Assembly (NCBI GenBank): GCA_973895155.1
Contig: OZ316898.1
Location: 188,751 to 252,750 of the forward strand
Length of the DNA: 64,000 nt
Reading direction: 5' to 3'
Source: Marsupella aquatica
Taxonomy: Eukaryota > Plantae > Marchantiophyta
The position numbers were made by a program, and so were the translations under genes. Position 1 is the first letter of the stretch; every line of letters begins with the position of its first letter. This document shows positions 18,085-59,095 of the stretch, one piece after another. A model generated the notes under the pieces. The model was given only the letters and a program-made list of their open reading frames with translations, did not search any database and was not told where the DNA came from.

Positions 18085-18170
18085 CTGTAAAACATTAAGA
18101 AATGAAAATAAGTTTATAACGCGAACGGTTGCGTGACTACAAAGAGAGACACTGAAATGAAGTGTATTAC

Positions 18171-27935: not shown

Positions 27936-30900
27936 TGTGATGCCTAGACAGGAATCACTCGGCCGGTTAAGTGGGTAAAGCAGGAAGGCACCCTAGGAAC
28001 ACCTTAGTATAGTGACAAAACAAGGAAAATATAAACAATTAGGGGCAACCATGGAACCTGGGCAGAGGCCGGAGGTAAGGCTGAGGGTGAAAACCCGATT
28101 AGGGTTAGGGCGCGTTAAGCGTCGGCGGCTAGGAAGGATCAACGGGAAGAAGGACCGGCAGAGGAGAGGGGTAAGGAGCGCTTGCAGGAGATGGTGGCTC
28201 ATTTGCGAGCACGAACTAGGCAGACGACTACGGGAGGCCAACTACTGTCAGCTGCTTAGGCAAGCACTCGGGGAGAGAGTAGATACCGACGATCAACCTA
28301 AGGAGGGTATGAGCAACGTCAATCAAGCGGCACATTTCTGGGGATGCCTGTTCGAACGGGCAACTGAGTACATCAAGACTTACAAGGACGAGGAGTCAGA
28401 AAAGGCAGCTCGAGAATGGCAGGAGCTCGCTCGATTGTGGGAGCTGCAGAAGACGGCTTTCTTAGGAGGCGAACTCATCAAGGACGAGTTCCTGTGGACG
28501 CCTACTTCCAATCAACTCGACGATCTTCTGTTTTGCAAAGACAGTGTCGTCGGCATCCGAGAGGCCATCAAGAACTGCAACGACATACACTGGGAATTAA
28601 AGGGTAGCACGGAAAGGTGGACCCAGGCAACGGTGCTAGGAGAAACCTCCACGGCAGCAGAGATGAAGAGGAAGGGAGCCGTCAACGATGAAGCCACCCC
28701 GGCAAAAAGAACGAGGTCGGCGGCACCAAAGAAGCCAGCCGAGCAGCAGAGCAGGAGGCAGGGAGAAGCCGAAGAGGAGGAGGTCGATCCCATCAAGGCC
28801 ATTCCTACCAGGGATGACACCTGGAAGGGCTGGGCGGCAACCCTACCGGTGGAGGTGCAACTACATTTTGCACGGGAGGAGGATGCATGCTTTACGGCCA
28901 TGCAGACCAAGAAGTACCAAGGCTTCATGGCCGGATCCGGCTTGGAGGCCTTTGTAAGATTACCATGGCTGAAGCCGGAGGTACCGGAGTCAGACCTATT
29001 AGAATTCGTGGGGTCATGGGAACCCGAGACCAATTGCACGAGGATATATGGGAAGGATTTCTATCTTACTCCCAAGGTGATTGCCGAAGTGTTTGGCTTG
29101 CCGATGGGCAATAAGACCAAAGTTGATACCAGGAAGACCTTGCCTGACAAGGAGTTCCGGTCGTTCCCCGGGCCATCAACGAAGAATGGCTTCTTCCGGA
29201 ACACCTGCACCAACCCGCACATAGGAGAGATGATCGACTTCTTGCGGGTGACCATGCATTGTAACTTGCCGAGGGCAGAGATCGGCAAGGCACAGGTCTA
29301 TCTGGCAGAAAGGCCAGACCCAAGCCGGGACTACAACGGGTACCTCCTCAACCAATTGAAGAAGATCTTAAAGGAGGAGCAGCAGGTAATCGGCATGGGG
29401 AGCGTGTCGCGGCTTGGCTATCACATGCCGCTGTTGTGCCGGTATGCCAGAGGTCAGACTTTTGCCCCGGTACTTCCCCTGCAGGTAAGGGCACCCGAGG
29501 AAGCTCCAACGCCGAGGCCGTTGGCTGAGAAGCCTCAACCACCTATTAGTCCTACGATTGAGCAGGTGTTTAGGCCCAGGAAGGAAGACTTGCCGATGCA
29601 GCAACCAGGCATGCAGAGTCTGCTGAAACTACTGGAGAAAGAAAAGAAATTGGCATCGGCAACAACAACGGCAACGGCAACAATGCAGGACACTACTACA
29701 GAGGTAGGCCTACACCGGCTCACAAGAGAAAACCCCTTTGCTGGAGACAAGGAGAGAATCAGGCCGGAATCCAAGCCAGGTGTTCGAATGTACGTGGGAA
29801 CCTCAAGCTCCGAATCTGAGGCAGAATTGCCTGAAGCTCCTACCGAGGAAGAGGAGAGGGAGAAGCCGGAAATCCAAGAGGTAGAGGAGGCAGTGGAGGA
29901 CTGCAGCCATGATAATTCCGGCTATGGGTCGGACCATCACGTTCCAGGAGTAAGGACCTGTGGCCGGTTTGTCCCCACACTTCCAAGGGTAGTGCGAGGG
30001 GACCCCAACCAGCAGAGTAGCCCTGAGTCTCCCCCACCAGATGTTGCTCCCCTGAGCTTCGACGGCATAAAACAGACGGTGCAGGAATTTCAGGAGCGAA
30101 TCAAGCAGGAGGAAGAGGCCGCCCTGGCTAAGGAAAAGGATTTACCAGGAGGAGATTGGCCGGAGGACATCAGGCGGCTAGCCGAAAAAGGAAGCAAACC
30201 TCTAGCCACGATTGAAGAGATCCGCAGGACGGCTTGGGAGCAGAGGCCACGATGGGCGATGCCGATCACTTCTACTTACTCCACCTACGCTAAGAATAGA
30301 GCCATGGAGTATGGTGAGATGTGTGGGGAACTTGCGCTCGGCATCTTTGGAGAGGAGTTGGAGGTAGGACCCTTTTTCCATAGGGAGCAGTTGGAGAAGC
30401 ACCAATTAGAAGAAGCGGTGGCTTTAGAGAGAAGCAAGAAGGACGAGGTCATTCGGCGGCTTAGGAGGATGGGAGCCGAGATTGAAGATCTAAGGGCGGC
30501 CAAGAAAGCCCAAGATGAACTGCGGATTAAACGACATGAGCTGAACATCATGCAGGGGCAGTTGGACGCCGCGCAGGCTGATAATCAGAATATCAAGGAT
30601 AAACTGACTCAGACGCAGGAAGAGTTGGCCGACACGATCAAAGAAAGGGAAAAGTGGAAGCAAGAGCTGAAGAATACAGAGGAGGCCCACATAACAGCCA
30701 ACAGCCGGGCCATGGCGGAGACCCAAAGAAAGGAATGGGCGTTGAAAGGGGAGCTCGAGAAAATCCGCGGAGCCCTTGAGCAGAAGGAGGTCGAGTTAGG
30801 GAAATCCTATCAAGGGATTATGGCGCTGCAGCAGGAGCTTGCGTCCCTGACGGCCAGCTTCAAGGCCGACCTAAGGGAGAAGGACGAGATGCTCGAACAG

Positions 30901-32583
30901 ACTTACGCCAAGATGAACCAGATGGAGTCTGTCATCATTGCAGAGCTCGACAAGGAGCTAAGAGCAACCCAGGAGGAGAAGGCTACCTTGAAGAAGGAAT
31001 TGGAGGAAGCCCACAGGGAGCAGGAGGAGGCCAAAAACGAGCTGGAGGGGGCACGTAAGGACCTAGATGAAACCCAAGAGGAGTTGGAGGAAATCACGAG
31101 GAAGATGGAGAACCTACAGCGGCGGGCCGACAACCAAACAGAGCGGCTGAAGAAACAAGCCGCAGTATTTAAATGCTTAGCTGCAGCAGGTCCATCTCCT
31201 GTTGGGACAAACCAGTTACCAGGGGTGGTAATTGCCGAAGGACAAGCCGCGCCACCTGCACCAGTGCCGGAGGTAAGTGGGAAGGGGAAGGGACCAGCTG
31301 CCGAGCCACCAACGAAGAAGAAGCGGAAACCTTCAGGGTCAAGGAGTAATACGACTTCACAGGCCGTGGTGATCAAGGAGGTAGACCCAGCACCGACCCC
31401 AGACAGGGTCACGGCTAAGGATCCAACTACCCTAGGGGAAGGGGAGGCCGAAGCCGTGGGGTTGGCTGAAGCCGAAGCCGTGGGGGTGGCTGAAGCCGAA
31501 GCCGTGGGAGTTATCGAGGCTGAAGCCGAAGGTGGACCCAGTCAGGCCGATGGAGAGTTGACTCGGTCAAGGGCAGGTAATCTGTCAGTAGGCGGGCCAA
31601 CGGCAGTGGCTGAGGAGGAAGTGTTGGGGGCGTCCATTGAGGATCCACCACCGGTATCGTGACGGTGCAAGGGCGCCGTTCCTTTTAGGGAGGGCGGACG
31701 TGGAGGGAGGAGGCGTGAGTGGGCAGGGCGGGCACGGATCTCCACGTTTAGGATTAGGATCAGAACCAGGAGCGGCCCTGACACTTAGCTTAGTGGGATT
31801 GCGGTCCCACTGGTAGGAGCAACACTTGTGCTCCTGCCTTGCTGTACATAGGTAGATTCGGGCAAGTAGATTACTGTTAAGTAGATTAGGCTTACGATGC
31901 AAAGAATGGCGGATCCACTACCAGGATAAGTACCTGGGCAGCGGGGAGCTCAGGGCCTCTTCTTTAGCAAGTTTTTAGTTTGCACCAGCCGGGCTGGGAT
32001 CAAGTAGTACGAGAAGCTCTCGGTTAGTCATACAGTGACCCTTGTGTATATTCATGTTTCCTCATGCCTAAGAGCTGAATAGAGTTGGCCTCACGGCTTA
32101 GTTCGCAGAACTTGTGTATGAGATGTACTGTTTGTATGGCAAGTGCATGGTATGACTCAGTCAGAATGAGTCATTTTGCTATTTGTGTGTCGCATTAACT
32201 TGTGTGAAGAGTGCCCACATCAACAGAAGGAAGGAAAGTAAGCAGGGGAGTGAGAGTTGGATGTGTCGAGCTGAGAGAGGTCTTAGCGGCTTAACCAAGC
32301 CTATTGGGGATCATTCCGGCGGCGGAATCCAAACATACCTAACAAGACGGAGGGGAAGACAGGGGAAGACAGGGGAAGGCCTATATTAGGCCGGCTACGT
32401 ATCTCATGACCCGATGAAGGATCTGTCCAGTATATGTGTGTAAAATGTTAATAGTAGTAGTAGAAGGTTAGCAGCGTCCCATGCCGCTAAGCCGCGGAAA
32501 CGGCCTCGCCAAGCACGAAACCTGCGGGAATCGGCTTGAGCTGGGGGGTTTCTTGGGTTTAGGGAGCCATGGGACGCACCACA
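27936..32583 (+). mobile_element. Solo LTR, family X (4648 bp), protein-coding, nested in the Y-LTR gene
   Basis: TGTGATGCC...CACCACA termini; TSD CTGCA at 27931-27935 and 32584-32588; nearly identical to the 3' LTR at 54445-59095. Confidence 0.95.
28012..31662 (+). CDS. X-LTR-encoded 1216-aa protein (first ATG at 28051); plant-transposon eORF domain plus long coiled coil
   Basis: Intact ORF wholly within the LTR. Core GLEAFVRLPW..DLLEFVGSW..TRIYGKDFYLTPKVIAEVFGLP, NLS-like KKKRK, and EAEAVGxA repeats. Confidence 0.9.
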   Translation: MTKQGKYKQLGATMEPGQRPEVRLRVKTRLGLGRVKRRRLGRINGKKDRQRRGVRSACRRWWLICEHELGRRLREANYCQLLRQALGERVDTDDQPKEGMSNVNQAAHFWGCLFERATEYIKTYKDEESEKAAREWQELARLWELQKTAFLGGELIKDEFLWTPTSNQLDDLLFCKDSVVGIREAIKNCNDIHWELKGSTERWTQATVLGETSTAAEMKRKGAVNDEATPAKRTRSAAPKKPAEQQSRRQGEAEEEEVDPIKAIPTRDDTWKGWAATLPVEVQLHFAREEDACFTAMQTKKYQGFMAGSGLEAFVRLPWLKPEVPESDLLEFVGSWEPETNCTRIYGKDFYLTPKVIAEVFGLPMGNKTKVDTRKTLPDKEFRSFPGPSTKNGFFRNTCTNPHIGEMIDFLRVTMHCNLPRAEIGKAQVYLAERPDPSRDYNGYLLNQLKKILKEEQQVIGMGSVSRLGYHMPLLCRYARGQTFAPVLPLQVRAPEEAPTPRPLAEKPQPPISPTIEQVFRPRKEDLPMQQPGMQSLLKLLEKEKKLASATTTATATMQDTTTEVGLHRLTRENPFAGDKERIRPESKPGVRMYVGTSSSESEAELPEAPTEEEEREKPEIQEVEEAVEDCSHDNSGYGSDHHVPGVRTCGRFVPTLPRVVRGDPNQQSSPESPPPDVAPLSFDGIKQTVQEFQERIKQEEEAALAKEKDLPGGDWPEDIRRLAEKGSKPLATIEEIRRTAWEQRPRWAMPITSTYSTYAKNRAMEYGEMCGELALGIFGEELEVGPFFHREQLEKHQLEEAVALERSKKDEVIRRLRRMGAEIEDLRAAKKAQDELRIKRHELNIMQGQLDAAQADNQNIKDKLTQTQEELADTIKEREKWKQELKNTEEAHITANSRAMAETQRKEWALKGELEKIRGALEQKEVELGKSYQGIMALQQELASLTASFKADLREKDEMLEQTYAKMNQMESVIIAELDKELRATQEEKATLKKELEEAHREQEEAKNELEGARKDLDETQEELEEITRKMENLQRRADNQTERLKKQAAVFKCLAAAGPSPVGTNQLPGVVIAEGQAAPPAPVPEVSGKGKGPAAEPPTKKKRKPSGSRSNTTSQAVVIKEVDPAPTPDRVTAKDPTTLGEGEAEAVGLAEAEAVGVAEAEAVGVIEAEAEGGPSQADGELTRSRAGNLSVGGPTAVAEEEVLGASIEDPPPVS

Positions 32584-35500
32584 CTGCAGGAGGACACTCC
32601 AGCCCCTTCCAACGTTATGTCCCCAGGGCTGGACGTCACTGCCCCGGCCCCTGCGCGTGTTGATGTCTGCCCGTGCCCAAATCCGGATAGGCACAACTTG
32701 GACCACCCGGAACTCTTCGTACAGGGTACGTTTCTGAACGGGCTTCTGGGAGATTTCTCTCATCAAATTGTCCGGGATACCGGGGAGTTCATGGCCCGGA
32801 AGGTAGCCTGTTTCTTCAATCAGGAGTTGGTTGCCGCCGTAAAGGCAGGTCGGGCCCAGTCGGAGGCCCTTCAGAGGATAGAGCGGTACCGGGTGGAGTC
32901 CGTGTACCTAAAGAACGAAGTGGCGGCTCAAGAGGCTGAGCTTCTGCAACTACGACCCAAGGTTGCAGCCGCCGATGAGTTGTTAGCAAAGGCGTACGCC
33001 CTTACCGCCCTAGCCGAACAGGCCAAAGCGGGGAACGAGGCCGAGATTACACGACTTCGGAACCAGATTGACAGTTTGAAGAAACAAGCTGTCACCTGGC
33101 AGAAAGACCTGGAGGAAGCCGAGGAGCGAGCCCAGCGGGACGCGACGGAGATAGCCACGCTACAGGCCGAGATGGCGCGGCTCCAAACCGAGGCCGAGAA
33201 GCAGGACCAGCTGGCGAGTAAACTGACGAGCGACGCCCAGCAGCTGGAGGAGGCATGTCAGGAGGCAGCAGAGGAGACGGACGCGGCGAGGCGAGAGAAC
33301 GAATCTCTGCTGGACCAGGTCCAGCTCCTCAAGGCGGACAATGACAGGCTTCGAAGGCAGCGGGATGGCCGTTCCCATTCGGGCGGCTCTGGCAAGCGTG
33401 CCAGGCATTAGCGGCGGAGTAGGAATAGATTAGGATTAGGATTGGCTTAGTCAGGCTCTTGGGACAGGCACCTGCCTTAGGTACAGCAGCGCTGCCCTGC
33501 TGTCCAGCCTGCGTAGATTAGGATCTTCTAATAAGACACAGCCGTTTTCCGGCCTGACTGTCAGCTTAGTTAGGACCTTAGTCAGCGAATCTTCGGCGAG
33601 AGGACACCCCGTTCCTCGGCTCTTAGTATTTAGTGCACCCCTCGGTAGAGGCAGGGGGGTTTTTAGTTTCAGAGTCGAACATCCGCGGGACATGCGGGGA
33701 GTCCCGACCTCTGGGAATGACAGAGTACCATGGGGAGGGGGTAGGACTAAGCTCGTCGGGCGAGTGCGGAGCCGGGCTCCGTTGTAGTGTGCACCCTCGG
33801 CCTTGAACCTGTGCATTCCAGGGCTGTCGTGTCAACTAAGTGTACGCATATGTTCCCTTTGTAGTAAAATCCTTTCCCATCATTTTCCTTCGTGTAAATC
33901 GAGATTGTATGCATGTGTGCGCATATGTGTGTGGGTTTCTCGTATATGGGTGGCAGCGCCAGGCCGAACGCACTACCCGAGACGTGCACAGGGTGCAGCC
34001 TGCGGGTAAGTGGTTGCGAGCACGGGTTGAGGACCTGTATCATCGAATCCGGATCGAAGGCGGACAGCACGAAGGCTTAGAAGCCCTTAAGCCGGGGTCG
34101 ATCCTGCTATCGACTAAGGTACGTTCCGGCGGTGGAACACAAACCATACCTAGGAGGTGTCCGTATTTAGCAGTATGCGCACTTAGTGCTAGTTTACGAG
34201 AATAAGGTGCATTACGTGCTTCCCTTCCTGCCCGAACCCTCAGATTTACGAGGGATGTGCTCGTCTAAGCTGAAGTCTGAGTTAAGGCCGAAGCCTACGA
34301 CGTGACAGAGTCCAGTACTTGCCTTTGGGTACTCGATATTTTGGATTGTAAGGGGTATTACATACATAATCCGGTCAAGGTTTCCTGGTCGAATGGCGCG
34401 TTTATTGTTAATTCTTGCACCCGACGGAATGATGTGCAAGGTCTCCAGCCCCATTGCCTCATCCGCTTCAATTGATCGTCGTCAGAACGCCCACCCGCTG
34501 GACTGATTGAAGAAGCCCTTTCGGGAATAGAATGCTCACCAGTTGGACTTTCTTCGCTTACGTTGATCGGGTCTTCCAGCACTTGTGCTAGCATATTGGC
34601 TGCAGTGGCAGCCTCTGCCCTTAGTTAACACCTGTACTTGGAATATCCCAAGCTTTGTACCGAACATATTAATTTAATGTTATTGCTGGACCAGTTTGTT
34701 CCCACCTATGTACTTCCCTCAATCACTTCTCCATTTCTTTATCTCTCCTCTATGCACTCTCCGCGAGCGCGGCAATTAAGTGTAAGCACTCTTCTCCTCC
34801 AGCTGCTGGCGGAGTCCTTTGCACTGAACTTCATCCCGATGGAACTTTTGTTCGTACACCAACATCTCCATCCTTGTCGTGCTCTCCATGGAACCTTTGT
34901 TCCTATACTCCCATGGCTAGCAGAATGGCGATCATCTCTCGCCGATGCTGGACTGGTAAGTGACCTTATTGGTATAGTTGGCGCTACAAACACTTTAATC
35001 ATTCTTTTGTCGGTGGATGGCGTGGGTGATTATAAATGCCGGCATGGCAAAGTCGCTTTGCTTGGTTGCATTGCCTGGCCGAGTGGATAAGCTGCTTCTC
35101 ACCACGAGTGCACCGGTGGCATTTCGGTGCACCGTGCTCTTCGGACTGAAAACACCAAACAAACCCAAAACTGCATTTTGCGACTATTTGGATCAGTCCT
35201 TAAGTACCGGTCCGCACAAAACAGAGGCTCTACACGAGAGCCGCATATCCCGGGTCAAAATTGAATTTAGGGACAAAGTCCGCTTGGGTTTAAGGTGTAT
35301 GGTTGCTGTTTTTCAGTTAGTGGACAGTTATGGGCTATTTCTGCCCCTTCAGAGTTGAGGGTGTCTGCACAAAGACTCTAGAGAGCCTGAAAACCGGGGG
35401 GTGTGTGGTGTTGAGCAGGGCATGGGTTCAGTTGGGCCGGAGCCAAAGAACGGATACCAGCAGGGTGAATGGTGCCATGGTATGATGCCATGAGAGTTTG

Positions 35501-35970: not shown

Positions 35971-37135
35971 GAAGAAGGTAAGGGTTTAGGGAAAACCCCT
36001 AAACACGTAACCACAGAACCCTAACCGCCGGGAAGGCTGAGGGGTGCCCTGGTTTTCTGCCATGAATGGAGTTTGAGGTAATTCCAGGTTCGGGCAACCC
36101 AAATAAACCTTAAACTCCGGGCGGGTGTGTGCTGGCCAGCCGCACAGGGAGAGGCTCTAGTCGTGCAGCGGGGAGTGGAAGAAGGCAAGGGTTTAAGGAA
36201 AACCCCTAAACACGTAAACACAAAACCCTAACCGCCGGGAGGGAAGGCTAAACCCTAAACCCTGGTTTTCTGCCATGAATGGAGTTTGAGGTAATTCCAG
36301 GTTTGGGCAACCCTAATAAACCCTAAACTTCGGGTGGGTGTGTGCTGGCCAGCCACACAGGGAGAGGCTCTACGCGATAGTCGTGCAGCGGGGAGGTGGA
36401 AGAAGGCAAAGATGGGACTAGTACAGTAGTGGTGCTACGGTAGTATAGTTTTGTGGAGGGCGTTCGTGTTCTCTAAGGCGAGTGTTGTGCCCATGGAGTG
36501 AACGTGGGTTGAGGGTCTAGGGTCACACGTCCTGGTTGCTGTAAAGCCAGGAATCAGGTGTCGCAAAATTAGATGGCGGGGAAATGATTGAGTGTTACGG
36601 AATTGGCCAGAAAGAGGTGAATCCCGTGAGTGAAGTTCCAGGAGAGGCAGAGGTGAGGCAGTCCACAGTGGCCGCAGTGTATGGAGAGACTGTACGCGAT
36701 AGATGGCAGGGTAGGCAGAGTTGGTGCGAGGGGAGTACGGGAAGACGGCCGTAGTGCTATCCGGGCTCCCGAAGCAGTGACGTTTGAAGAATGGTGTAGG
36801 GATTGATTTACTTTGTATTTTCATGGCACGACTGTCTTTTTCGGGCGTTCGGGGCAAGAAGAACACAAAACTGGGGTAAACCCTAAACCGTAAACGGTAA
36901 ACCCTGAACCGGAAACGGTAAACCCCGGAACCCTAAAATAAACCCTAAATGACGGGGAGGGAGGGTGGCCAGAGTTGATGCGAGGGGAGTATGGGAAGAA
37001 GGCCGCAGTGCTATCCGGGCTCCCGAAGCAATGACGTTTGAAGAATGGCACGGGGATCGACTTGCTTTGTAATGTTGGTTCCTTTGTATTTTCATGGAGG
37101 GACAGTCTTTTTCGGGCACTCGTGGGAAAAAGACC
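35971..37135 (+). repeat. Subterminal-type duplications with telomere-like motifs
   Basis: Tandem duplication of about 207 bp (35971-36177 and 36178-36409); duplication near 36715-36860 and 36968-37130; degenerate AAACCCT run at 36877-36949. Confidence 0.75.
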
Positions 37136-37191
37136 ACAAAAAAGACTGCAAAGACCGCACATTGCGATCGCTGGGCTGCATGAAAATGTAT

Positions 37192-39365
37192 ATAGGATAG
37201 CTAGGTTAGCCAAACTCGGGTTAGCTATGTAACTCGGGTTAGCATAGCAGTGAGTACCCCCTCTCGGTTGCGGGGGCATAAGTGTCTGTGTATTTGACCA
37301 AATCGGCTATAATTGACCTCATTGGAAAGAGGAGCTCAAGCCGCTTCCAACGCTACTATCCATGTAGCAATTGGTTGAATAGAGAAATCGGGAGAGGAGG
37401 CGCAAGCTCGCAAAAACCATGGAGGAGGGCCAAATCCGAAGTACATAGCCAATTTGAGATAGAAATAAAGTTGCGAGTTAGGGTTCAGTAGTTAGAGATA
37501 GTGGCAGCTCTGTTAGGGCTGGGATGGGGCTCCAGCAGCATAGTATCCAACCATTTGGGCTTAGTATGAGAGTATATAGAGCAGCCCCCCGGTAGAGGCA
37601 AGGGGGGGAACTTCAGTTGTGTGATCTCACGTGGATTGAGCAACAGGGAGGAGCTCTGTGCAAGGAAGGTTGGGCTTGGAAGCTGTGTGTTGGGGAGAGC
37701 TTGGTTGTGCTATTACTCAGGGAGTAATCAGCCACGCTTTACAGCAACAGTTGGCCAGGTTTGCAAGCTGGATTGTGGCTCTTTCTAGTAGGCAACACAA
37801 CTGGGTTCTTTTCCCCCGATACAGAGCCTTGGTGATCGGTGACGTGTTGGTGATTGTAAACTGTGGGGAGGATTTCAATGTGATTTGCGGTGAGCGCATT
37901 AGGGAGGTTGAGATACTGATTGAGGGGCAGCAGGAGGAGCATTTACAGTTTAGTCTGGCAAGGCTACGTGATCCATGGGGAGTCCCGGCCTTTGTCTGGT
38001 AGAGAGCACTAAGGGATCTATGGCCAGAGCTGAGCTTGCAGGGCAAGCATGAGCCGGGCCTCATTATAGTCTGGGGTAGATCGCCATTAGGCCTGGAACC
38101 AGCTTTGAAGTCGAGTCAACTGTGCATGCGTACTTGACATTCTGAAATGGAGGTGTGAGATCTGTACGTGCCCCCAAGAATGAAGTGCAGTGAAGGAGGT
38201 TGAGTTCAGGGTTGAGTTTGCAAGGCAAGTACGGGATTGGTTCAAGTCCAATCTACCGTCGCAATCTGGAGTGAGTCGGGCTCAGGTTCAGGATTGAGCT
38301 TGCATGGCAAGCACGGGGCTTGCGGGGCAAGCACGTCGCAATCTAGAGGAGACAGCCTTCGGGTCTAGTGTTCGGATCAAGTGTTCTCAGTGAACTATTG
38401 TGCACATCTTTGAATCTAATTGAGTTTTCCTCTCAGGCCTCATTTCTCTCATGGATGTGTGTGTGTGAGGCAATCTGAGTGTATTATGGGACTAGCAGCG
38501 CCACTGAGGTGTTTACAAAAGACAACAAACAGGAAACAGGATTTAATAACAGAAACTGGTAACAGGAAAAAAAACTGGTAACAGGAAAAAAAACTGGTAA
38601 CAGGAAAATGGGTGGAATTTTTTTTTGAATTTTTTTTTTGAATTTTTTTTTTTTTTTGTCGACCAGTTTTTTTTGCTAGCGCCCGACGCTGCTAATAGTA
38701 GCGCCCAAAGCTAGCCAAAAATGTTGCATTGTTAATTTTTTTTGGAAATAATATGTTTTAGGAGACATTTTTAAATTGTCATTTTTCCTGGTAACAATGA
38801 TTTTTTCCTGGTAACAGCATATTAAAAACAGGAAAAAAAATTCCTGTTTACCTGTTTCCTGTCTCCATCGCTATACCCGCGCCACTGAGAGGTGTACCGG
38901 GTGCATTGAAGTGGGTTGGGTGAGGGCTGTCATAGCTCTGATTGCTGAGAGTGGAATGGCAGAGTGGTGGGGCAATGGCTTAGAAGTCCCTAAGTCGGGA
39001 ATCAGTCAGGAGTCACTGGTTTATGGGTACATTCCGGTGGCGGAATAGAAATATACCTATGACAGTAAGCATACGTATAGACATATGCGCACCATAGCAC
39101 TAGGCCCTGTGTGTACGGGCCCGATATGAAGACCCCTTCTCACCAGAACTATCATGAGCACATGATCTGATTCCCAACCTTGGTTCTTAGGGATTGAGCT
39201 TGGGTGATGTGTGACGGAGTCTTGCTATGATAGTCTGGTGTTAAGGGCATAAACTGGTGTTTACCGGCCTTCACAACATCCCTTCGTGATCCTCAGGTAC
39301 AAGGAGATGGTTTTGGCACCCATAGTGACGTTTTTGGTGTTAAGACCCATCTCAATCACGTGACA
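37192..39365 (+). mobile_element. Family Z LTR, missing about 660 bp of its 5' part, with a MITE insertion
   Basis: Reverse complement of 22956-24653; ends GTGACA at 39365. Confidence 0.9.
38508..38878. mobile_element. Mutator-like MITE (about 370 bp)
   Basis: Absent from the other Z copies. Flanked by a 10-11 bp duplication GCGCCACTGA(G) at 38498 and 38879. Imperfect inverted ends (acaggaaacagg / cctgtttcctgt), AT-rich, internal aactggtaacaggaaaa repeats. Confidence 0.8.
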
Positions 39366-42300: not shown

Positions 42301-43458
42301 TCCAGTGGATTTTCAGCTGCAGTAGGGTATTGCCGGCCACTCCCACTCTTGCTAGCGAAATTCCCTGTTTGCTTGCATCATACAATACCTCATTGGGTGA
42401 CTTTTGACTGCCAACAATTGAGGAAAACAATTCACAACTCACATTGGCATTCTACTGTCAAGAAGATGCACAAATTACAGTTCATGATTGATTGCTGCCT
42501 GAATGCTGTTACGTTAGCTCAAAGGAAGAATGGTGTTCTTCCACCAGACGTCTTCGACATCAATCTCACCCAAGCAAATTCAAACCAAAAAGAAGAGAAA
42601 ACAGATTAATCTCCCTCTTAAGACCTTCTCCAAGATGAATCGATTTACTTGAAGTAGGCATGGGCCCGGCAGAAGCAACAGACACATGCTCATCCACTAT
42701 TCCTTGCAGAACTATGCTCCCATCTCCGTTCACGTGCACTGTCTATGAGCTTTCAGATTTCAATCATGCCAGCAACGCAGCAAGATTTCTACTGCAAATA
42801 CAGCCCACTTTCCTGCCTTGTCCGATGATCCTTGAGGATAGCAGTGTACAGTGCATCATTCTCATTCTCGCATAATTTCAGGACTTCCTCCCCAGAACCC
42901 GGAGTAGTTAACATGCTTTAGAGCACCTTTCACGACCTTATCTTGTGAATCTGCGAAGCTCAGAACAGTTGAGTTGCAGATGAAACTTCATATCTTTGGT
43001 TGAGTTCAGGGCTTTCTCTGCAAGTCTGAAACTGATTGCTTAAAGTTTTTATGCTGGTGGAGGTTGTCATCGGCGAATTTTATCTTCATGTCCTTGATGT
43101 CTCGTGTCAGCAAAGTAAGTTCCCGTCCAGTACTATGTTCATGGCAAGGCAGCTACTGTATGCGAACCCTTCTTCTAATCTAACAACAAAATGTAACGAA
43201 GATATCAAACGAACTTTCTACATGGCGGGCCAAGAGCTTGATTTCACGCATCTATGATTTCGACTCTCAAAAGTAAATCCCCTTAACATTTCTCTTACAT
43301 GAAAACGTCTTTCAGCCAGAAGAGGGCTAGTTACAGTCCCAAATTGCAGAATCTCAAAATTAATGTTACAGAATTGCAGCAACGAACACCTGATTGTACC
43401 TGCGCTGCCAGTGAGTACTGCTTTAGATCACTTTCCAGCCAGCCCAACACAGCTGGGT

Positions 43459-47964: not shown

Positions 47965-50559
47965 TGAATTGTTTTTGATTTGTTTCAGCAGTCAAGACCA
48001 TATTTCTACAATCAAACGGTAACAACAGGAAAGCAGACCGGTAAGTCCCTGGTTCTTGGGCTAGGACCCTACATCCGTCCAAAGATATATTTTCTTGTCT
48101 CCTGTGATCTGCTGCTATATTTCGTACGGAAAACGTGCAAAAGCGATATAACCCGGTTTCAATTGAGAGTAACGGCGATCTGTCAAGAATGCAATGGTCT
48201 CAGAATATACGGAAATAATTGTGAGAGGCATATCCAGGTAGCTAAATAATCTATATGCTCGTTCACACTCCAGTACACTTTGCAGTCCTGGCCGTATGGA
48301 AATGCAGGGGAATCATTGTTTGGCAACTCGGTGATCACTCGATCAATGATGCCAGCGTTGGCCATATCCACATCTACACCTGAGAGTGTAAAAACCAAAT
48401 ACGAGAACAAATCCAACGTTAGGCATCAGGAAGAGTTGACTCATCCACATCAAACCAAGGTAGGGATAACTCCCCCAAAATTACATTCTCACTAAAGCAA
48501 ATCCACCTAACTAGGACAGAGTTGAGCTCTCTTCTAAAGGTTTTCCCTTCTCTACTAGGACTTCCGCATGTTTGTATTAGAGCCTTTTCCCAAATTTTTG
48601 GATGCTGCACAACTCAAGGTACACCAGAATTTGTATTTCAATTACAAACAATTTTAGTGAAAGCCGAATCCTTCTAGATTTTACACCAACCACGCCGCTT
48701 GAAAGGGGCAAAACTAAATTCATCGACTGTAATTGCTTAATTAATTCAACAATGCCAGTGCTGCAACGGCTCGTTATTTTCAACTGCTGCATCTCCCTAA
48801 TCATAACAGAACATGAAGAAATCATTTGTAGTAAGACATAGAAAAGTCACACACATCTTGCCTCATCGTATCCAATCTCTAGGCTCTGCCGCTCCAGAAG
48901 CTTGCCCACCACAACTGCTCCTTCCACTCCAGCATTTTGTGCTACGATGTACGCAGGCATCTGTCCAAATCATTTGACAAGTGTTGCTAACACACTGTAG
49001 CAAGCCAAAATCAAAAGCTGTCATGCTTCAAGTCCTTCAAACTTTCAACTTTTGGGAACTTAACAACTGAAATAAAATAAGGAGCTATATAACCTCGGTC
49101 AAGCTTCGTGCCTTCCACTACTTCTAGTTCGTTGTAAAGATTCTTTCCGTCCTCCAACATCGCATTTATCTATACTTAACAGAAGAAAGAACGACGGGAA
49201 TTTCAGTGAGATTTAAATAGGAGGACCAGGATCCGTAGGCAAGTTTGCAAAGGCCTCTGCCACCGTCACACCATCCCTACCAACTTTACGATAACCAAAA
49301 CTTTGCTCTGTAACCATATTTCGACCTTGGAAAAGAGTTACACACAGCAATGAGTGACTAGTATAAGGCTGTCGCGCACCTACAACACACCTAGACATAA
49401 TTTTATGAGGACAATGTTTACGGTTGTTCACTTGTTGAAGAGCAAATCTTCTGCAAGATGAAGCATGCCGAGGAAAGGCTCAGCAACTTAGTGGAGAATC
49501 GGAAACTCTAGCTATAAAACACATCTTCCCGGGTGATCGCTACACCAGCGAACGTTCACAAACACGTCCTAAAGTATCCCATATTGTCACCAATCCTCAC
49601 TTCCTTAGAAGACAGCGATTTCTCCGTGTATTATTTTGTGCACAGTGACACTAGGGGAAGAAATGATGAAGAAGCTAAATATGTTTTCAAAGGCCTAACT
49701 CTGTAAATCCAAGCTCCCAGTTAGCAAATCCATCTTATTCCACTACGTACCATGACCGAAATCTCATGCCCTAAAAAGATGCCCGGCAGCTCCCATACAC
49801 TACTGTGTCCCAGAATACAGATCCCGGCTCATACACAACCTCAGGAAAAGATAAACCCGGGACCTGATCACCTCTTCCGCTTACTACGACCATGTTGCAG
49901 CAGGGATTCCAAAGACGAAGACAAAAGAAAATGCACTAAGAGATGGGGTGAATAACCGACTGAGAGCCAAGAATAGAAGAGCAAACCCACCTTGCAGCAC
50001 TCACAAAATGTTGTCCCCGGCTGCATTGTCGCTGCCCGCGTATCATCAATTGGGCATGAAGCACTACTCCACACCTGCATTTGTTGTATGTCATGTTGAC
50101 AAGCCATATAACATACATTATGTCCTTATGTTAAAATTTACACCATTTGAATAAAATTCAGTGTTTTCCTGGCACTTGAACCATTTTGCCATCAAGTTTT
50201 GCCTTTAGATGAAAAAAATTCTCAAGAAAAAAATTCTCAAGTGGGGTTTCCCTTTGTCTTTTGATCCACTATTCTTATTACTTTATCACATCTATTTTGT
50301 CTCAAGCACTTTTGGTACTCATCTCTATTGATGTTCAAAGAACGGGTAATGGGAGCTAGTATATCAAATGGGAGCTAGTATATCAAACTGCCAAAAAGCA
50401 GGAGGCGCTGAACTGGGAGACATGACCAAAAACCCAATTAAGGGAGAACAAGAAAAGTACCAAAAAGCCAAAAAGACCAGGCACTAGTACAACTAAGGAA
50501 AACAAAAGACACACCAACCAAAAACTCTACCTATCTGCAAATTGAAGAGTTTGGTAAAG

Positions 50560-52614: not shown

Positions 52615-54444
52615 TGTCACGCGATTGACATGGGTCTTAACACCAAAAACGTCACTATGGGTGCCAGAACCATCTCCTTGTACCTGAGGATCACGAGGGG
52701 ATGTTGTGAAGGCCGGTAAACACCAATTTATGGCCTTAACACCTGACTATCATAGCAAGACTCTATCACACATCACCCAAGCTCAATCCCAAGGAACCAA
52801 GGTTGGGGATCAGATCTGCGCTCATGATAGTTCTGGTGAGAAGGGGTCTTCATATCGGGCCCATACACACAGGGCCTAGCGCTACGGTGCGCTTAGGTCT
52901 ATACATATGCTTACTATCATAGGTATGTTTCTATTCCGCCGCCGGAATGTACCCATAAACCAGTGACTCCTGACTGATTCCCGGCTTAGGGACTTCTAAG
53001 CCATTGCCCCACCACTCTGCCATTCCACTCTCAGCAATCAGAGCTATGACAGTCCTCACCTTGCTTCAATGCACCCTGTACACCTCTTAGTGGCGCTGCT
53101 AGTCCCATCATACACTCAGATTGTCTCACACACACACACATCCATGAGAGAAATGAGGCCTGAGAGGAAAACTCAATTAGATTCAAAGATGTGCACAATA
53201 GTTCACTGAGAACACTTGATCCGAACACTAGGGCCGAAGGCTGTCTCCTCCAGATTGTGACATGCTTGCCCCGCAAGCCCCATGCTTGCCATGCAAGCTC
53301 AATCCTGAACCTGAGCCCGGCTCACTCCAGATTGCGACGGCATATTGGACTCCAACCAATCCCGTACTTGCCTTGCAAACTCAATCCTGAACTCAACCTC
53401 CTTCACTGCACTTCATTCTTGGGGGCACATACAGATCTCACACCTCCAATTCAGAACGTCAAGTTACGCATGCATAGTTGACTCAACTTCAAAGCTGGTA
53501 CCAGGCCTAACGACGATCTACCCCAGACTGCAATGAGGCCCGGCCTCATGCTTGCCTTGCAAGCTCAGCTCTGGCCATAAATCCCTTAGTGCTCTCTACC
53601 AGACAAAGGCCGGGACTCCCCATGGATCACGTAGCCTTGCCAGACCGAACTGTAAATGCTCCTTCTGCTGCCCCTCAATCAGTATCTCAGCCTCCCTAAT
53701 GTGCTCACCACAAATCAAATTGACATCCTCCCCATAGTTTACAATCACCAATACATCACCTATCACCAAGGCTCTGTATCGGGGGAAAAGAACCCAGTTG
53801 TGTTGCCCACTAGAAAGAGCCACAATCCAGCTCGCAAACCTAGCAACCCGTTGCAGCTGTGAAGCTTGGCTGATTACTCCCTGAGTAATAGCACAACCAA
53901 GCTCTCCCCAACACGCAGCGTCCAAGTCCAGCCTTGCTTGCAGAGAGCTCCTCCCTGCTGCTCAGTCTAAGTGAGATCACACAACTGAAGTCCCCCCCCC
54001 CCTTGCCTCTACCGGGGGGCTGCTCTATATACCCTCATATTGAGCCCAAATGGGTGGATACTACGCTGCTGGAGCCCCATCCCATCCCTAACAGAGCCGC
54101 CACTATCTCTAACTACTGAACCCTAACTCGCAACTTTATTTCTATCTCGAATTGGCTATGTACTTCGGATTTGGCCCTCCTCCATGGTTTTTGCGAGCTT
54201 GCGCCTCCTCTCCCGATTTCTCTATTCAACCATTTGCTGCGTGGATAGCAGCGTTGGAAGCGGCTTGAGCTCCTCTTTCCAACGAGGTCAATTACAGCCG
54301 ATTTGGTCAAATACACAGAGAGTTATGCCCCCGCAACCGAGAGGGGGTACTCACTGCTGCGCTAACCCGAGTTACATAGCTAACCCGAGTTCGGCTAACC
54401 TAGCTATCCTATCTAACCCGAGTAGAGCTAACCCGTGGTCTCGG
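52615..54444 (-). mobile_element. Family Z LTR (3' part) interrupted by insertion of a family X element
   Basis: Matches 22956-24685; abuts the X LTR end at 54445; predicted TSD CTCGG (54440-54444). Confidence 0.9.
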
Positions 54445-57400
54445 TGTGGTGCGTCCCATGGCTCCCTAAACCCAAGAAACCCCCCAGCTCAAGCCGATTC
54501 CCGCAGGTTTCGTGCTTGGCGAGGCCGTTTCCGCGGCTTAGCGGCATGGGACGCTGCTAACCTTCTACTACTACTATTAACATTTTACACACATATACTA
54601 GACAGATCCTTCATCGGGTCATGAGATACGTAGCCGGCCTAATATAGGCATTCCCCTGTCTTCCCTTGTCTTCTTGTTAGGTATGTTTGGATTCCGCCGC
54701 CGGAATGATCCCCAATAGGCTTGGTTAAGCCGCTAAGACCTCTCTCAGCTCGACACATCCAACTCTCACTCCCCTGCTTACTTTCCTTCCTTCTGTTGAT
54801 GTGGGCACTCTTCACACAAGTTAATGCGACACACAAATAGCAAAATGACTCATTCTGACTGAGTCATACCATGCACTTGCCATACAAACAGTACATCTCA
54901 TACACAAGTTCTGCGAACTAAGCCGTGAGGCCAACTCTATTCAGCTCTTAGGCATGAGGAAACATGAATATACACAAGGGTCACTGTATGACTAACCGAG
55001 AGCTTCTCGTACTACTTGATCCCAGCCCGGCTGGTGCAAACTAAAAACTTGCTAAAGAAGAGGCCCTGAGCTCCCCGCTGCCCAGGTACTTATCCTGGTA
55101 GTGGATCCGCCATTCTTTGCATCGTAAGCCTAATCTACTTAACAGTAATCTACTTACCCGAATCTACCTATGTACAGCAAGGCAGGAGCACAAGTGTTGC
55201 TCCTACCAGTGGAACCGCAATCCCACTAAGCTAAGTGTCAGGGCCGCTCCTGGTTCTGATCCTAATCCTAAACGTGGAGATCCGCGCCCGCCCTGCCCAC
55301 TCACGCCTCCTCCCTCCACGTCCGCCCTCCCTAAAAGGAACGGCGCCCTTGCACCGTCACGACACCGGTGGTGGATCCTTAATGGACGCCCCCAACGCTT
55401 CCTCCTCAGCCACTGCCGTAGGTTCATTCTCTGACAGATTACCTGCCCTTGACTGAGTCAACTCTCCATCGGCCTGACTGGGTCCACCTTCGGCTTCAGT
55501 CTCGACACCGGCCTCGGCAATACCCACGGCTTCGGCCTCAGTCACTCCCTCGGCTTCGGCTTCAGCCACTCCCTCGGCTTCGGCCTCCCCTTCCCCTAGG
55601 GTAGTTGGATCCTTAGCCGTGACCCTGTCTGGGGTCGGTGCTGGGTCTACCTCCTTGATCACCACGGCCTGTGAAGTCGTATTACTCCTTGACCCTGAAG
55701 GTTTCCGCTTCTTCTTCGTTGGTGGCTCGGTAGCTGGTCCCTTCCCCTTCCCACTTACTTCCGGCACTGGTGCAGGTGGCGCGGCTTGTCCTTCGGCAAT
55801 TACCACCCCTGGTAACTGGTTTGTCCCAACGGGAGATGGACCTGCTGCAGCTAAGCATTTAAATACTGCGGCTTGTTTCTTCAGCCGCTCTGTTTGGTTG
55901 TCGGCCCGCCGCTGTAGGTTCTCCATCTTCCTCGTGATTTCCTCCAACTCCTCTTGGGTTTCATCCAGGTCCTTACGTGCCCCCTCCAGCTCGTTTTTGG
56001 CCTCCTCCTGCTCCCTGTGGGCTTCCTCCAATTCCTTCTTCAAGGTAGCCCTCTCCTCCTGGGTTGCTCTTAGCTCCTTGTCGAGCTCTGCAATGATGAC
56101 AGACTCCATCTGGTTCATCTTGGCGTAAGTCTGTTCGAGCATCTCGTCCTTCTCCCTTAGGTCGGCCTTGAAGCTGGCCGTCAGGGACGCAAGCTCCTGC
56201 TGCAGCGCCATAATCCCTTGATAGGATTTCCCTAACTCGACCTCCTTCTGCTCAAGGGCTCCGCGGATTTTCTCGAGCTCCCCTTTCAATGCCCATTCCT
56301 TTCTTTGGGTCTCCGCCATGGCCCGGCTGTTGGCTGTTATGTGGGCCTCCTCTGTATTCTTCAGCTCTTGCTTCCACTTCTCCCTCTCTTTGATCGTGTC
56401 GGCCAACTCTTCCTGCGTCTGAGTCAGTTTATCCTTGATATTCTGATTATCAGCCTGCGCGGTGTCCAACTGCCCCTGCATGATGTTCAGCTCATGTCGT
56501 TTAATCCGTAGTTCATCTTGGGCTTTCTTGGCCGCCCTTAGATCTTCAATCTCGGCTTCCATCCTCCTAAGCCGCCGAATGACCTCGTCCTTCTTGCTTC
56601 TCTCTAAAGCCACCGCTTCTTCTAATTGGTGCTTCTCCAACTGCTCCCTATGGAAAAAGGGTCCTACCTCCAACTCCTCTCCAAAGATGCCGAGCGCAAG
56701 TTCCCCACACATCTCACCATACTCCATGGCTCTATTCTTAGCGTAGGTGGAGTAAGTAGAAGTGATCGGCATCGCCCATCGTGGCCTCTGCTCCCACGCC
56801 GTCCTGCGGATCTCTTCAATCGTGGCTAGAGGTTTGCTTCCTTTTTCGGCTAGCCGCCTGATGTCCTCCGGCCAATCTCCTCCTGGTAAATCCTTTTCCT
56901 TAGCCAGGGCGGCCTCTTCCTCCTGCTTGATTCGCTCCTGAAATTCCTGCACCGTCTGTTTTATGCCGTCGAAGCTCGGGGGAGCAACATCTGGTGGGGG
57001 AGACTCAGGGCTACTCTGCTGGTTGGGGTCCCCTCGCACTACCCTTGGAAGTGTGGGGACAAACCGGCCACAGGTCCTTACTCCTGGAACGTGATGGTCC
57101 GACCCATAGCCGGAATTATCATGGCTGCAGTCCTCCACTGCCTCCTCTACCTCTTGGACGTCCGGCTTCTCCCTCTCCTCTTCGTCGGTAGGAGCTTCAG
57201 GCAATTCTGCCTCAGATTCGGAGCTTGAGGTTCCCACGTACATTCGAACACCTGGCTTGGATTCCGGCCTGATTCTCTCCTTGTCTCCAGCAAAGGGGTT
57301 TTCTCTTGTGAGCCGGTGTAGGCCTACCTCTGTAGTAGTGTCCTGCATTGTTGCCGTTGCCGTTGTTGTTGCCGATGCCGATTTCTTTTCTTTCTCCAGT

Positions 57401-59095
57401 AGTTTCAGCAGACTCTGCATGCCTGGTTGCTGCATCGGCAAGTCTTCCTTCCTGGGCCTAAACACCTGCTCGATCGTAGGACTAACAGGTGGTTGAGGCT
57501 TCTCAGCCAACGGCCTCGGTGTTGGAGCTTCCTCGGGTGCCCTTACCTGCAGGGGAAGTACCGGGGCAAAAGTCTTACCTCTGGCATACCGGCACAATAG
57601 CGGCATGTGATAGCCAAGCCGCGACACGCTCCCCATGCCGATTACCTGCTGCTCCTCCTTTAAGATCTTTTTCAATTGGTTGAGGAGGTACCCGTTGTAG
57701 TCCCGGCTTGGGTCTGGCCTTTCTGCCAGATAGACCTGTGCCTTGCCGATCTCTGCCCTCGGCAAGTTACAATGCATGGTCACCCGCAAGAAGTCGATCA
57801 TCTCTCCTATGTGCGGGTTGGTGCAGGTGTTCCGGAAGAAGCCATTCTTCGTTGATGGCCCGGGGAACGACCGGAACTCCTTGTCAGGCAAGGTCTTCCT
57901 GGTATCAACTTTGGTCTTATTGCCTATCGGCAAGCCAAACACTTCGGCAATTACCTTGGGAGTAAGATAGAAATCCTTCCCATATATCCTCGTGCAATTG
58001 GTCTCGGGTTCCCATGACCCCACGAATTCTAATAGGTCTGACTCCGGTACCTCCGGCTTCAGCCATGGTAATCTTACAAAGGCCTCCAAGCCGGATCCGG
58101 CCATGAAGCCTTGGTACTTCTTGGTCTGCATGGCCGTAAAGCATGCATCCTCCTCCCGTGCAAAATGTAGTTGCACCTCCACCGGTAGGGTTGCCGCCCA
58201 GCCCTTCCAGGTGTCATCCCTGGTTGGAATGGCCTTGATGGGATCGACCTCCTCCTCTTCGGCTTCTCCCTGCCTCCTGCTCTGCTGCTCGGCTGGCTTC
58301 TTTGGTGCCGCCGACCTCGTTCTTTTTGCCGGGGTGGCTTCATCGTTGACGGCCCCCTTCCTCTTCATCTCTGCTGCCGTGGAGGTTTCTCCTAGCACCG
58401 TTGCCTGGGTCCACCTTTCCGTGCTACCCTTTAATTCCCAGTGTATGTCGTTGCAGTTCTTGATGGCCTCTCGGATGCCGACGACGCTGTCTTTGCAAAA
58501 TAGAAGATCGTCGAGTTGATTGGAAGTAGGCGTCCACAGGAACTCGTCCTTGATGAGTTCGCCTCCTAAGAAAGCCGTCTTCTGCAGCTCCCACAATCGA
58601 GCGAGCTCCTGCCGTTCTCGAGCTGCCCTTTCTGACTCCTCGTCCTCGTAAGTCTTGATGTACTCAGTTGCCCGTTCGAACAGGCATCCCCAGAAATGTG
58701 CCGCTTGATTGACGTTGCTCATACCCTCCTTAGGTCGATCGTCGGTATCTATTCTCTCCCCGAGTGCTTGCCTAAGCAGCTGACAGTAGTTGGCCTCCCG
58801 TAGTCGTCTGCCTAGTTCGTGCTCGCAAATGAGCCACCATCTCCTGCAAGCGCTCCTTACCCCTCTCCTCTGCCGGTCCTTCTTCCCGTTGATCCTTCCT
58901 AGCCGCCGACGCTTAACGCGCCCTAACCCTAATCGGGTTTTCACCCTTAGCCTTACCTCCGGCCTCTGCCCGGGTTCCATGGTTGCCCCTAATTGTTTAT
59001 ATTTTCCTTGTTTTGTCACTATACTAAGGTGTTCCTAGGGTGCCTTCCTGCTTTACCCACTTAACCGGCCGAGTGATTCCTGTCTAGGCATCACA
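54445..59095 (-). repeat. 3' LTR of family X (4651 bp)
   Basis: TGTGATGCC start directly after the PPT, CACCACA end; boundaries coincide with the TSD-defined solo copy. Confidence 0.93.
55357..59019 (-). CDS. X-LTR-encoded 1220-aa protein, second intact copy
   Basis: Near-identical to 28012-31662; indels keep the frame. Confidence 0.9.
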   Translation of the reverse strand: MTKQGKYKQLGATMEPGQRPEVRLRVKTRLGLGRVKRRRLGRINGKKDRQRRGVRSACRRWWLICEHELGRRLREANYCQLLRQALGERIDTDDRPKEGMSNVNQAAHFWGCLFERATEYIKTYEDEESERAARERQELARLWELQKTAFLGGELIKDEFLWTPTSNQLDDLLFCKDSVVGIREAIKNCNDIHWELKGSTERWTQATVLGETSTAAEMKRKGAVNDEATPAKRTRSAAPKKPAEQQSRRQGEAEEEEVDPIKAIPTRDDTWKGWAATLPVEVQLHFAREEDACFTAMQTKKYQGFMAGSGLEAFVRLPWLKPEVPESDLLEFVGSWEPETNCTRIYGKDFYLTPKVIAEVFGLPIGNKTKVDTRKTLPDKEFRSFPGPSTKNGFFRNTCTNPHIGEMIDFLRVTMHCNLPRAEIGKAQVYLAERPDPSRDYNGYLLNQLKKILKEEQQVIGMGSVSRLGYHMPLLCRYARGKTFAPVLPLQVRAPEEAPTPRPLAEKPQPPVSPTIEQVFRPRKEDLPMQQPGMQSLLKLLEKEKKSASATTTATATMQDTTTEVGLHRLTRENPFAGDKERIRPESKPGVRMYVGTSSSESEAELPEAPTDEEEREKPDVQEVEEAVEDCSHDNSGYGSDHHVPGVRTCGRFVPTLPRVVRGDPNQQSSPESPPPDVAPPSFDGIKQTVQEFQERIKQEEEAALAKEKDLPGGDWPEDIRRLAEKGSKPLATIEEIRRTAWEQRPRWAMPITSTYSTYAKNRAMEYGEMCGELALGIFGEELEVGPFFHREQLEKHQLEEAVALERSKKDEVIRRLRRMEAEIEDLRAAKKAQDELRIKRHELNIMQGQLDTAQADNQNIKDKLTQTQEELADTIKEREKWKQELKNTEEAHITANSRAMAETQRKEWALKGELEKIRGALEQKEVELGKSYQGIMALQQELASLTASFKADLREKDEMLEQTYAKMNQMESVIIAELDKELRATQEERATLKKELEEAHREQEEAKNELEGARKDLDETQEELEEITRKMENLQRRADNQTERLKKQAAVFKCLAAAGPSPVGTNQLPGVVIAEGQAAPPAPVPEVSGKGKGPATEPPTKKKRKPSGSRSNTTSQAVVIKEVDPAPTPDRVTAKDPTTLGEGEAEAEGVAEAEAEGVTEAEAVGIAEAGVETEAEGGPSQADGELTQSRAGNLSENEPTAVAEEEALGASIKDPPPVS

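Follow-up and report, generated by a model that had tools for sequence, protein, structure and literature searches.

The long terminal repeats (LTRs) of a Ty3/gypsy retrotransposon of the liverwort Marsupella aquatica, here called family X, contain an intact gene that lies wholly inside the repeat, and a diverged homolog occupies the same place in the LTR of a second family, Y. Both were found in a 64,000-nt stretch of contig OZ316898.1 (assembly GCA_973895155.1; forward strand, positions 188,751–252,750), hereafter the window, to which all coordinates refer. On balance, and with modest confidence, we favor the reading that family X is a chromodomain-less Ty3/gypsy element whose LTR-encoded product is a nuclear, sequence-specific DNA-binding protein that shields the element's own copies from silencing, much as the transposon-encoded protein VANC21 does.

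The family X LTR and its two copies

Copy A of the family X LTR (27936..32583, forward strand) is 4,648 bp long, has TG...CA termini, and is flanked by a 5-bp target site duplication (TSD), CTGCA, at 27931–27935 and 32584–32588. Copy B (54445..59095, reverse strand) is 4,651 bp long and has no TSD of its own; it is inserted in an LTR copy of a third family, Z, and immediately ahead of it is a polypurine-tract-like sequence (59096..59110, reverse strand) at the end of a pol gene, whose frame enters the LTR by 12 nt. The 15-nt termini are identical in the two copies, which are 98.2% identical overall in a self-comparison of the window and differ by 65 substitutions and two indels. No terminal repeats were found within the 4.65-kb unit. 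Because of the TSD and TG...CA termini of copy A, and the purine tract and pol ahead of copy B, we conclude that copy A is a solo LTR and copy B the 3′ LTR of a Ty3/gypsy element, which bears out an earlier note on this DNA, made from the sequence alone, that the unit occurs once in each of these forms. The 5′ LTR of the family X element and its primer-binding site lie outside the window.

The LTR gene and its predicted product

The gene in copy A is an intact open reading frame (ORF) at 28051..31662 (forward strand), 1203 amino acids from its first ATG, and the second intact copy, in copy B, is at 55357..58980 (reverse strand; 1207 amino acids); the longest stop-free frame across 300 shuffles of the family X LTR is 355 codons. 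The earlier note had given the products as 1216 and 1220 amino acids, and while the frame is indeed open in both copies, those sizes need a GTG start at 28012. The likely start is further downstream, at ATG 28309, because the start methionine of the homologs aligns with M87 of the X protein, and this gives products of 1117 and 1121 amino acids in copies A and B respectively. The note's statement that indels keep the frame holds, in that the 12-bp indel in the ORF is in frame and the other (9 bp) is in the non-coding tail, and the five nucleotide differences that it named (28083, 28530, 28545, 28677 and 28806) are all synonymous. A TATA-like box at 28030..28036 (forward strand), 94 bp inside the LTR and with the same layout in family Y, is the putative promoter of the gene; 279 bp separate it from ATG 28309, with one out-of-frame ATG between.

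The product has several recognizable parts, all encoded on the forward strand in copy A. A conserved N-terminal domain (28309..28620; residues about 87–190) is common to family Y and the liverwort homologs, and is followed by a core domain (28807..29490; residues 253–480) that has a predicted VANC21-like fold and weak links to DUF1985, Transposase_32, ATHILA and PMD. To the right of the core are a linker, a predicted long coiled coil of about 260 residues (30390..31170; residues about 780–1040), a basic KKKRK cluster at 1089, and a tail of 24-bp repeats. Two further basic clusters are KRTR at 219 and KRRR at 23; the nuclear-localization-like motifs proposed earlier thus remain at 219 and 1089, but the cluster at 23 precedes the likely start. 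The protein lacks a transmembrane segment, as previously suggested, with a maximum 19-residue Kyte-Doolittle hydropathy of 1.09.

Homologous and related LTR families

The family Y solo LTR (25644..34307, forward strand), with TG...CA termini and the TSD GAGTC, is 4,011 bp long without the X insertion, its boundaries being set by the TSD and termini alone, and copy A of family X sits within its open frame. This frame is the Y LTR gene (26110..33411, forward strand), a homolog of the X gene of about 882 codons that is interrupted by a single premature stop (26365) and by the X insertion, with a TATA box at 26002, 108 bp ahead of its ATG at 26110. The X and Y proteins share 26% identity over 242 amino acids of the core (E 4e-17), with no DNA similarity between the two genes in the protein-homologous region, and the two LTRs have the same layout of TATA box, ORF, and a 0.9-kb tail from the stop codon to the LTR end. 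Since homologs in the same layout are only 26% identical, the placement of the gene in the LTR appears to be old enough for the copies to have diverged to this extent. A decayed Y-like core fragment and an X-like N-terminal fragment are also present, at 39910–40063 and 41941–42319.

The family Z solo LTR (22956..25313, reverse strand) is 2,358 bp long, with the TSD ACATG and the same terminal words as family Y, and contains a 26-bp tandem array of eight units. It has no long ORF, the longest stop-free frame being 146 codons, and family Z may be a sister family that lacks the gene or is not autonomous, depending on proteins of the X or Y type. Partial copies of family Z are found at 37189–39366 and 52615–54444 besides the complete solo copy.

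A small 6-bp inverted repeat around a 4-base loop is common to the LTRs of X (32314..32327, forward strand), Y (34124–34137) and Z (23275–23288), in each case 184–333 nt from the LTR end; in X it is 270 nt from the end and 67 nt upstream of a second TATA-like box. At the outer position of the Y copy both partners of the pair have changed, and an inner change still allows G-U pairing, the pattern expected of an RNA hairpin; the motif is a candidate main-promoter or RNA element. Except for one loose match, it is absent from the 19 pol-related metagenome loci described below.

Selection on the gene and read data

A plain count of the ratio of non-synonymous to synonymous rates (dN/dS) between copies A and B gives 0.26–0.32, but since most of the changes are transitions this was replaced by a mutation-aware test in which changes were placed matched for base and methylation context. 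Over codons 1–1120, 19 of the 36 changes between the copies are synonymous, compared to 11.4–13.3 expected (p 0.007–0.037), and extending to codon 1150 gives 22 of 43 (p 0.003–0.022). Selection on the LTR gene is purifying but moderate, with omega about 0.41–0.53 from two copies. The dN/dS comparison proposed in the earlier note, run here on the two copies in the window, thus indicates constraint (omega about 0.4–0.5), and there are no stops in either ORF.

Twelve public sequencing runs from nine studies contain the stretch or part of it, and four of these (runs X1, X2, X3 and X6) were examined; none of the twelve is recorded as RNA, so they have no bearing on expression. Among 40 listed variants (a further 763 are unlisted) 15 are in the ORF and 10 of these are synonymous; nine of the 15 are differences between copies A and B, and five of the other six are synonymous. 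In run X1, 35 contigs depart from the reference at 54445, the LTR end, with an agreement of 0.38, as would be seen with many different flanks, and in run X6 one contig departs exactly at 59095, the start of the LTR. The summed depth of 12 ORF bins relative to six pol bins is 3.6-fold in run X1 and 4.2-fold in run X2, with median depth ratios of 2.8 and 3.5, and two non-coding LTR bins are 4.2-fold and 3.2-fold deeper than pol in the same runs (X3 and X6 were omitted owing to spikes in the pol bins from other families). These ratios fit an ORF present in both LTRs plus solo copies, noting that depth is not copy number and that no contig spans the element. The location of the gene inside the family X LTR, a central claim of the earlier note, is therefore supported by the TSD, the polypurine tract, the family Y homolog in the same layout, and read depth. 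In run X3, eight contigs stay with the reference through the end of pol and diverge from it at 59089, barely inside the start of the LTR; they probably stem from a sister family whose LTR differs.

Relatives of the protein and the fold of its core

A profile built from the X and Y cores identified 69 relatives at E≤0.001 among the 1.84 billion representatives searched. Twenty of the 69 were looked up, and the ten whose clusters are species-named are all from liverworts (eight Calypogeia fissa, two Riccia sorocarpa), the remainder being unnamed or 'hypothetical'; together with the PPR-DYW gene of the window, this suggests a bryophyte host. The liverwort homologs include CAM6101870 and CAM6086213. 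In several relatives the N-terminal domain starts 6–13 residues from the start of the protein, and a profile of this domain matches X residues 91–190 with an E value of 6e-4 (the best of 500 shuffles being 2.2). Word-seeded protein searches with the X core found no match at full length or in longer proteins and one near-length fragment; exact look-ups of three proteins from the window gave no match, and scans of viral and metagenome contigs with the core gave no locus. No stretch of a deep alignment of the core was usable as a pattern.

Pfam searches with the X protein gave just a sub-threshold coiled-coil match, and with 68 of the relatives they gave Transposase_32 in two and DUF1985 in one, all below cut-off. 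Atlas searches with the core returned Transposase_32, ATHILA, PMD and DUF1985 as leads only, with scores of 0.82–0.89, and an hhalign comparison of the core with a DUF1985 protein gave a probability of 12% and an E value of 0.002. Searches of PDB sequences with core profiles found nothing significant.

The fold of the core was predicted from 48 aligned sequences, with a mean predicted local distance difference test score (pLDDT) of 89 and a predicted template modeling score (pTM) of 0.87; a prediction from two sequences was unusable (pLDDT 36). When the model was compared with 48,161 representative PDB chains, VANC21 on its target DNA (9LNK) was alone at Z≥2, with a Z score of 8.3, a root-mean-square deviation of 4.1, and 208 residues aligned at 8% identity; the match spans the whole core domain, and realignment to VANC21 gave a Z score of 7.8. 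The sister entry of 9LNK has the highest Foldseek TM-score among the matches listed (0.49, E 2.7), and Foldseek found no match at E≤0.001 in the PDB or among predicted viral structures. We therefore predict a VANC21-type fold for the core, with a borderline score. The fold and profile comparisons that the earlier note had suggested for this region thus yielded a VANC21-like fold, and none of Transposase_32, ATHILA, PMD or DUF1985 above the Pfam cut-off. DUF1985 is reported to be a domain of VANC proteins (PMC5735166), so that the atlas leads, the three sub-threshold Pfam matches among 68 relatives, and the presence of DUF1985 in VANC are weaker lines that agree with the fold match.

Placement of the element among Ty3/gypsy lineages

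The pol fragment ahead of copy B (59084..61074, reverse strand) encodes the end of reverse transcriptase (RT), plus RNase H (RH) and an integrase (INT). Upstream it is interrupted by another LTR element (61075–64000, forward strand) that has landed in the RT region of X and whose LTR, at about 61075–62453, is followed by primer-site-like sequence; this insertion displaces the 5′ half of the X element beyond the window. The pol frame has Pfam matches to RNase H, the integrase zinc finger and the integrase core, in the order RT-RH-INT, and its closest solved relative is the Ty3 Gag-Pol protein. Pfam shows no chromodomain at the integrase C-terminus, the pol frame ending at the LTR, and the chromoviruses (including Tcn1) were excluded on this basis. 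Nor is there a Pfam match to an archaeal RNase H in the approximately 100 residues that separate RNase H from the integrase zinc finger, and Ogre and Retand, which have an extra RNase H ahead of integrase, were likewise excluded. Phygy, Selgy and TatI are described in supplement 3 of PMC6317226 as having 4-bp TSDs (NCGN in Phygy) and no extra ORFs, and as so defined they were excluded because the TSDs here are of 5 bp (CTGCA, GAGTC and ACATG). A 5-bp TSD and the lack of an extra polyprotein domain, as judged from the RH-INT part, are features of Athila, and an Athila-like placement of the family X element is compatible with these data.

Nineteen metagenome loci have pol genes 33–48% identical to that of family X, and none contains a homolog of the core (no tblastn match at E≤1; best profile E value 0.066); many of these loci are short and end near pol. 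In one of them (L003) there are 2.5 kb between pol and the next gag with no frame longer than 89 codons. In another (L007, 7076–7834), a Ty3/gypsy relative, a 252-codon sense frame follows pol, its first ATG preceded by a pyrimidine tract; this frame resembles neither the X gene nor any Pfam family. A short LTR considered in a third (L005) was not confirmed, as its two ends failed to align. A scan of viral contigs with pol gave no locus.

A candidate recognition word

The 6-mer TGCCGA occurs 12 times in the X gene of copy A (28550..31304, both strands), compared to 2.4 expected from synonymous shuffles of the coding DNA. Its z score of 4.86 exceeds that of the top 6-mer of each of 300 such shuffles (maximum 4.75), and one other 6-mer scored higher owing to the repeat tail. 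There are 12 and 13 copies in the two X LTRs, three in the X pol, and none in Y or in the Z solo LTR, with 0.1–0.35 per kb elsewhere. From its distribution in the window TGCCGA is a candidate family-specific recognition word. Enriched 5–8-mers are present in the Y tail and in Z, in the latter through the 26-bp array. The non-coding parts of all three families, X, Y and Z, are also enriched in the word TTAG, but this was picked by eye and carries little weight.

A model for the LTR gene and its alternatives

During reverse transcription, the U3 at the 3′ end of the RNA is copied into both LTRs, and recombination between LTRs leaves a single LTR with its TSD. In the model that we favor the gene would lie in U3, driven by a TATA promoter of its own close to where the LTR begins, and the second TATA-like box, some 200 nt short of the LTR end, would precede the start of the genomic RNA; TATA-like boxes are found near both ends of the family X LTR. 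Placing the gene in a 4.5-kb R-U5 segment instead is the less economical alternative. Expression might also proceed through a message spliced from the 5′ LTR. Because U3 is copied to both ends, a full element would have two copies of the gene, and each solo LTR would keep one. The protein would oligomerize through its coiled coil, enter the nucleus, and bind a short family-specific word (with TGCCGA the candidate) on family X DNA, where it may counter DNA methylation in trans. This draws on VANC21, which is reported to bind a 9-base word (PMC5735166) and to strip methylation from its own transposon family (PMC5735166, PMC8756742).

Several observations weigh against this reading. The Z score of 8.3 is at the level common for unrelated folds (7–8), the identity is 8–10%, and the Foldseek E value is 2.7; the X and Y proteins themselves have no direct Pfam match to Transposase_32, ATHILA, PMD or DUF1985. 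VANC is reported to be structurally related to MAIN, a transposon-silencing factor (PMC13547354, PMC9289625), and because the fold family includes MAIN neither the direction of the effect nor a function follows from the fold. The words bound by VANC21 are described as dense, in one orientation, and in non-coding tandem repeats (PMC5735166), unlike TGCCGA, which is in coding DNA on both strands; no 5–8-mer is enriched in the non-coding parts of X, and Y has no counterpart of a coding-DNA word. An omega of 0.4–0.5 from only two copies is moderate, and the lack of new stops is not significant by itself (probability 0.15–0.46 without selection). Finally, because all 19 pol-related loci lack a homolog, the gene would not be needed by the whole lineage, and the coding LTR appears to be limited to some families.

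The same architecture could also serve a different nuclear job, such as activation of the LTR promoter or tethering of the integration complex to chosen sites, and we consider this unlikely while giving it real weight: the basic clusters, long coiled coil and DNA-binding-type fold fit equally well, both X copies in the window are inside related LTRs (Y and Z), and the TRP28 and SMC-like accessory proteins of Retand have been proposed to be regulators (PMC11963269). However, the sole structural relative has a demonstrated anti-silencing role, and a pair of insertion sites is not enough to demonstrate targeting. That the protein instead restrains the element, through copy-number control or recruitment of silencing in the manner of the host PMD proteins MAIN and MAIL1, with the host tolerating the solo LTRs, seems improbable. 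The reported structural homology of VANC and MAIN, and the action of MAIN in silencing (PMC13547354, PMC9289625), would be in keeping with it, as is the presence of PMD among the atlas leads, but family X seems abundant and young from its 98% identity and its deep coverage in two runs, and the gene has been kept in diverged element families, which fits a benefit to the element.

We see still less reason to regard the 4.65-kb unit as an independent mobile cassette rather than an LTR, or the ORF as a passenger without current function. Neither a 5′ LTR nor a primer-binding site is visible within the window, and selection is moderate, as either version would allow; yet copy B lacks a TSD and begins exactly after the purine tract that terminates pol, a 5-bp TSD and TG...CA termini mark copy A, the unit has no terminal repeats inside it, and homologous genes are present in two LTR families and 69 relatives. 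Least probable of all, in our view, is that the protein serves cell-to-cell spread as an Env-like or movement factor; the ORF would share with env-like ORFs a sense orientation downstream of pol (PMC7264820), but this reading is opposed by the lack of a transmembrane segment, the lack of any match at E≤0.001 among predicted viral structures, and a fold match to a DNA-bound protein. The earlier suggestion of a nuclear accessory factor rather than Env gains from this absence of a transmembrane segment and from the restriction of the fold match to VANC21.

Extending the favored anti-silencing reading, we more tentatively propose that bryophyte Ty3/gypsy families took into the LTR a VANC-fold anti-silencing gene along with a promoter and recognition words of its own, such that every solo LTR would be an autonomous anti-silencing cassette; we regard this as a possibility that is somewhat doubtful at present.

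Relationship to known systems

VANC21 is encoded by Arabidopsis VANDAL21, a Mutator-like DNA transposon (9LNK/9LNJ), and the predicted core fold is alike over 208 residues. It is likewise a transposon-encoded accessory protein, a coiled coil is reported for VANC (PMC13547354), and both VANC21 and the X protein have variable regions with peptide repeats. Unlike VANC21, the X gene is encoded in a Ty3/gypsy LTR, with 8–10% identity and no direct DUF1985 match, and X is without a non-coding tandem array of the target word.

The extra ORFs reported in plant elements include Athila ORF-1 (PF03078), Transposase_32 (PF20167), the PMD of Ogre (PF10536), and the TRP28 and SMC-like coiled-coil proteins of Retand (PMC6317226, PMC7264820, PMC11963269, PMC11728184). 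Family X resembles these in being a non-chromovirus Ty3/gypsy element whose accessory protein has a globular domain with a coiled coil, is predicted to be nuclear, and has weak profile and atlas links to them. However, the scores of X against the Athila, Transposase_32 and PMD families are far below the Pfam cut-offs, and the extra ORFs of Athila, Ogre and Retand are described as internal, lying either 5′ to gag or in the stretch from pol to the 3′ LTR, whereas the X gene is wholly in the LTR, and is therefore duplicated and kept in solo LTRs.

The sag/naf gene of mouse mammary tumor virus (MMTV) is a complete ORF in the LTR with a promoter inside U3 (PMC9412291), a feature it would share with the X gene if the U3 promoter proposed here is correct. 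MMTV is a mouse retrovirus and sag a superantigen with an immune role; homology is unexpected, and the X gene fills 3.4–3.6 kb of its LTR. Long non-coding LTRs are reported in plants, reaching about 5 kb in non-chromoviruses (PMC6317226), and Retrosat2 has LTRs over 3.2 kb with an ORF0 upstream of gag-pol (PMC3485330); these match X in size, and the available parts of these two sources place no ORF inside them. Plant extra ORFs are located in the internal region in the portions available of PMC7264820, PMC6317226, PMC11728184, PMC11963269, PMC7466625, PMC12885004 and bioRxiv 10.64898/2026.09.17.752431. A literature search, mostly of non-subscription papers available in part, turned up no case of a plant retrotransposon with a gene contained entirely in its LTR, and the element tables of PMC6317226 may hold such ORFs. 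Accessory ORFs outside LTRs and MMTV sag are the known arrangements, and a plant retrotransposon gene contained entirely in the LTR would be new.

Other features of the window

An intact PPR-DYW gene of about 1470 amino acids is at 43459–47991 (reverse strand), with repeats of 303-bp period (7.4 copies, 88% matches); that the repeat units are unusually alike at the DNA level suggests a recent internal expansion. A cluster at 15533–20906 (reverse strand), which may be transposon cargo, comprises a lysine/alanine repeat ORF, two NIF phosphatase-like ORFs and a Ulp1-type protease, and at 12067–14904 (forward strand) are exons with NSD-type PHD fingers and BRCT domains, probably of a host gene. 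An exact 143-bp direct repeat at 3157–3299 and 7161–7303, 4 kb apart, possibly represents short LTRs or the ends of a recent insertion. Tandem duplications at 35971–37141 (213-bp period, and a 166–183-bp pair) contain telomere-like TAAACCC runs.

Significance

Accessory ORFs of plant retrotransposons have been reported for decades without a known function, and the link to VANC21 offers one that can be tested, namely the binding of a short word and the countering of methylation. Thousands of repeats of this kind may be mis-annotated as non-coding or as host genes, and elements of this kind would be overlooked by LTR finders whose size limit is less than 4.6 kb. If the more tentative proposal above is true, the LTR gene would represent a counterpart of the VANC system in retrotransposons, and the VANC fold would extend to non-flowering plants. 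Solo-LTR formation, which is deemed to be the end of an element's coding capacity, would here preserve a complete gene, such that the host's usual means of deleting retrotransposons would leave behind a gene that demethylates the remaining copies.

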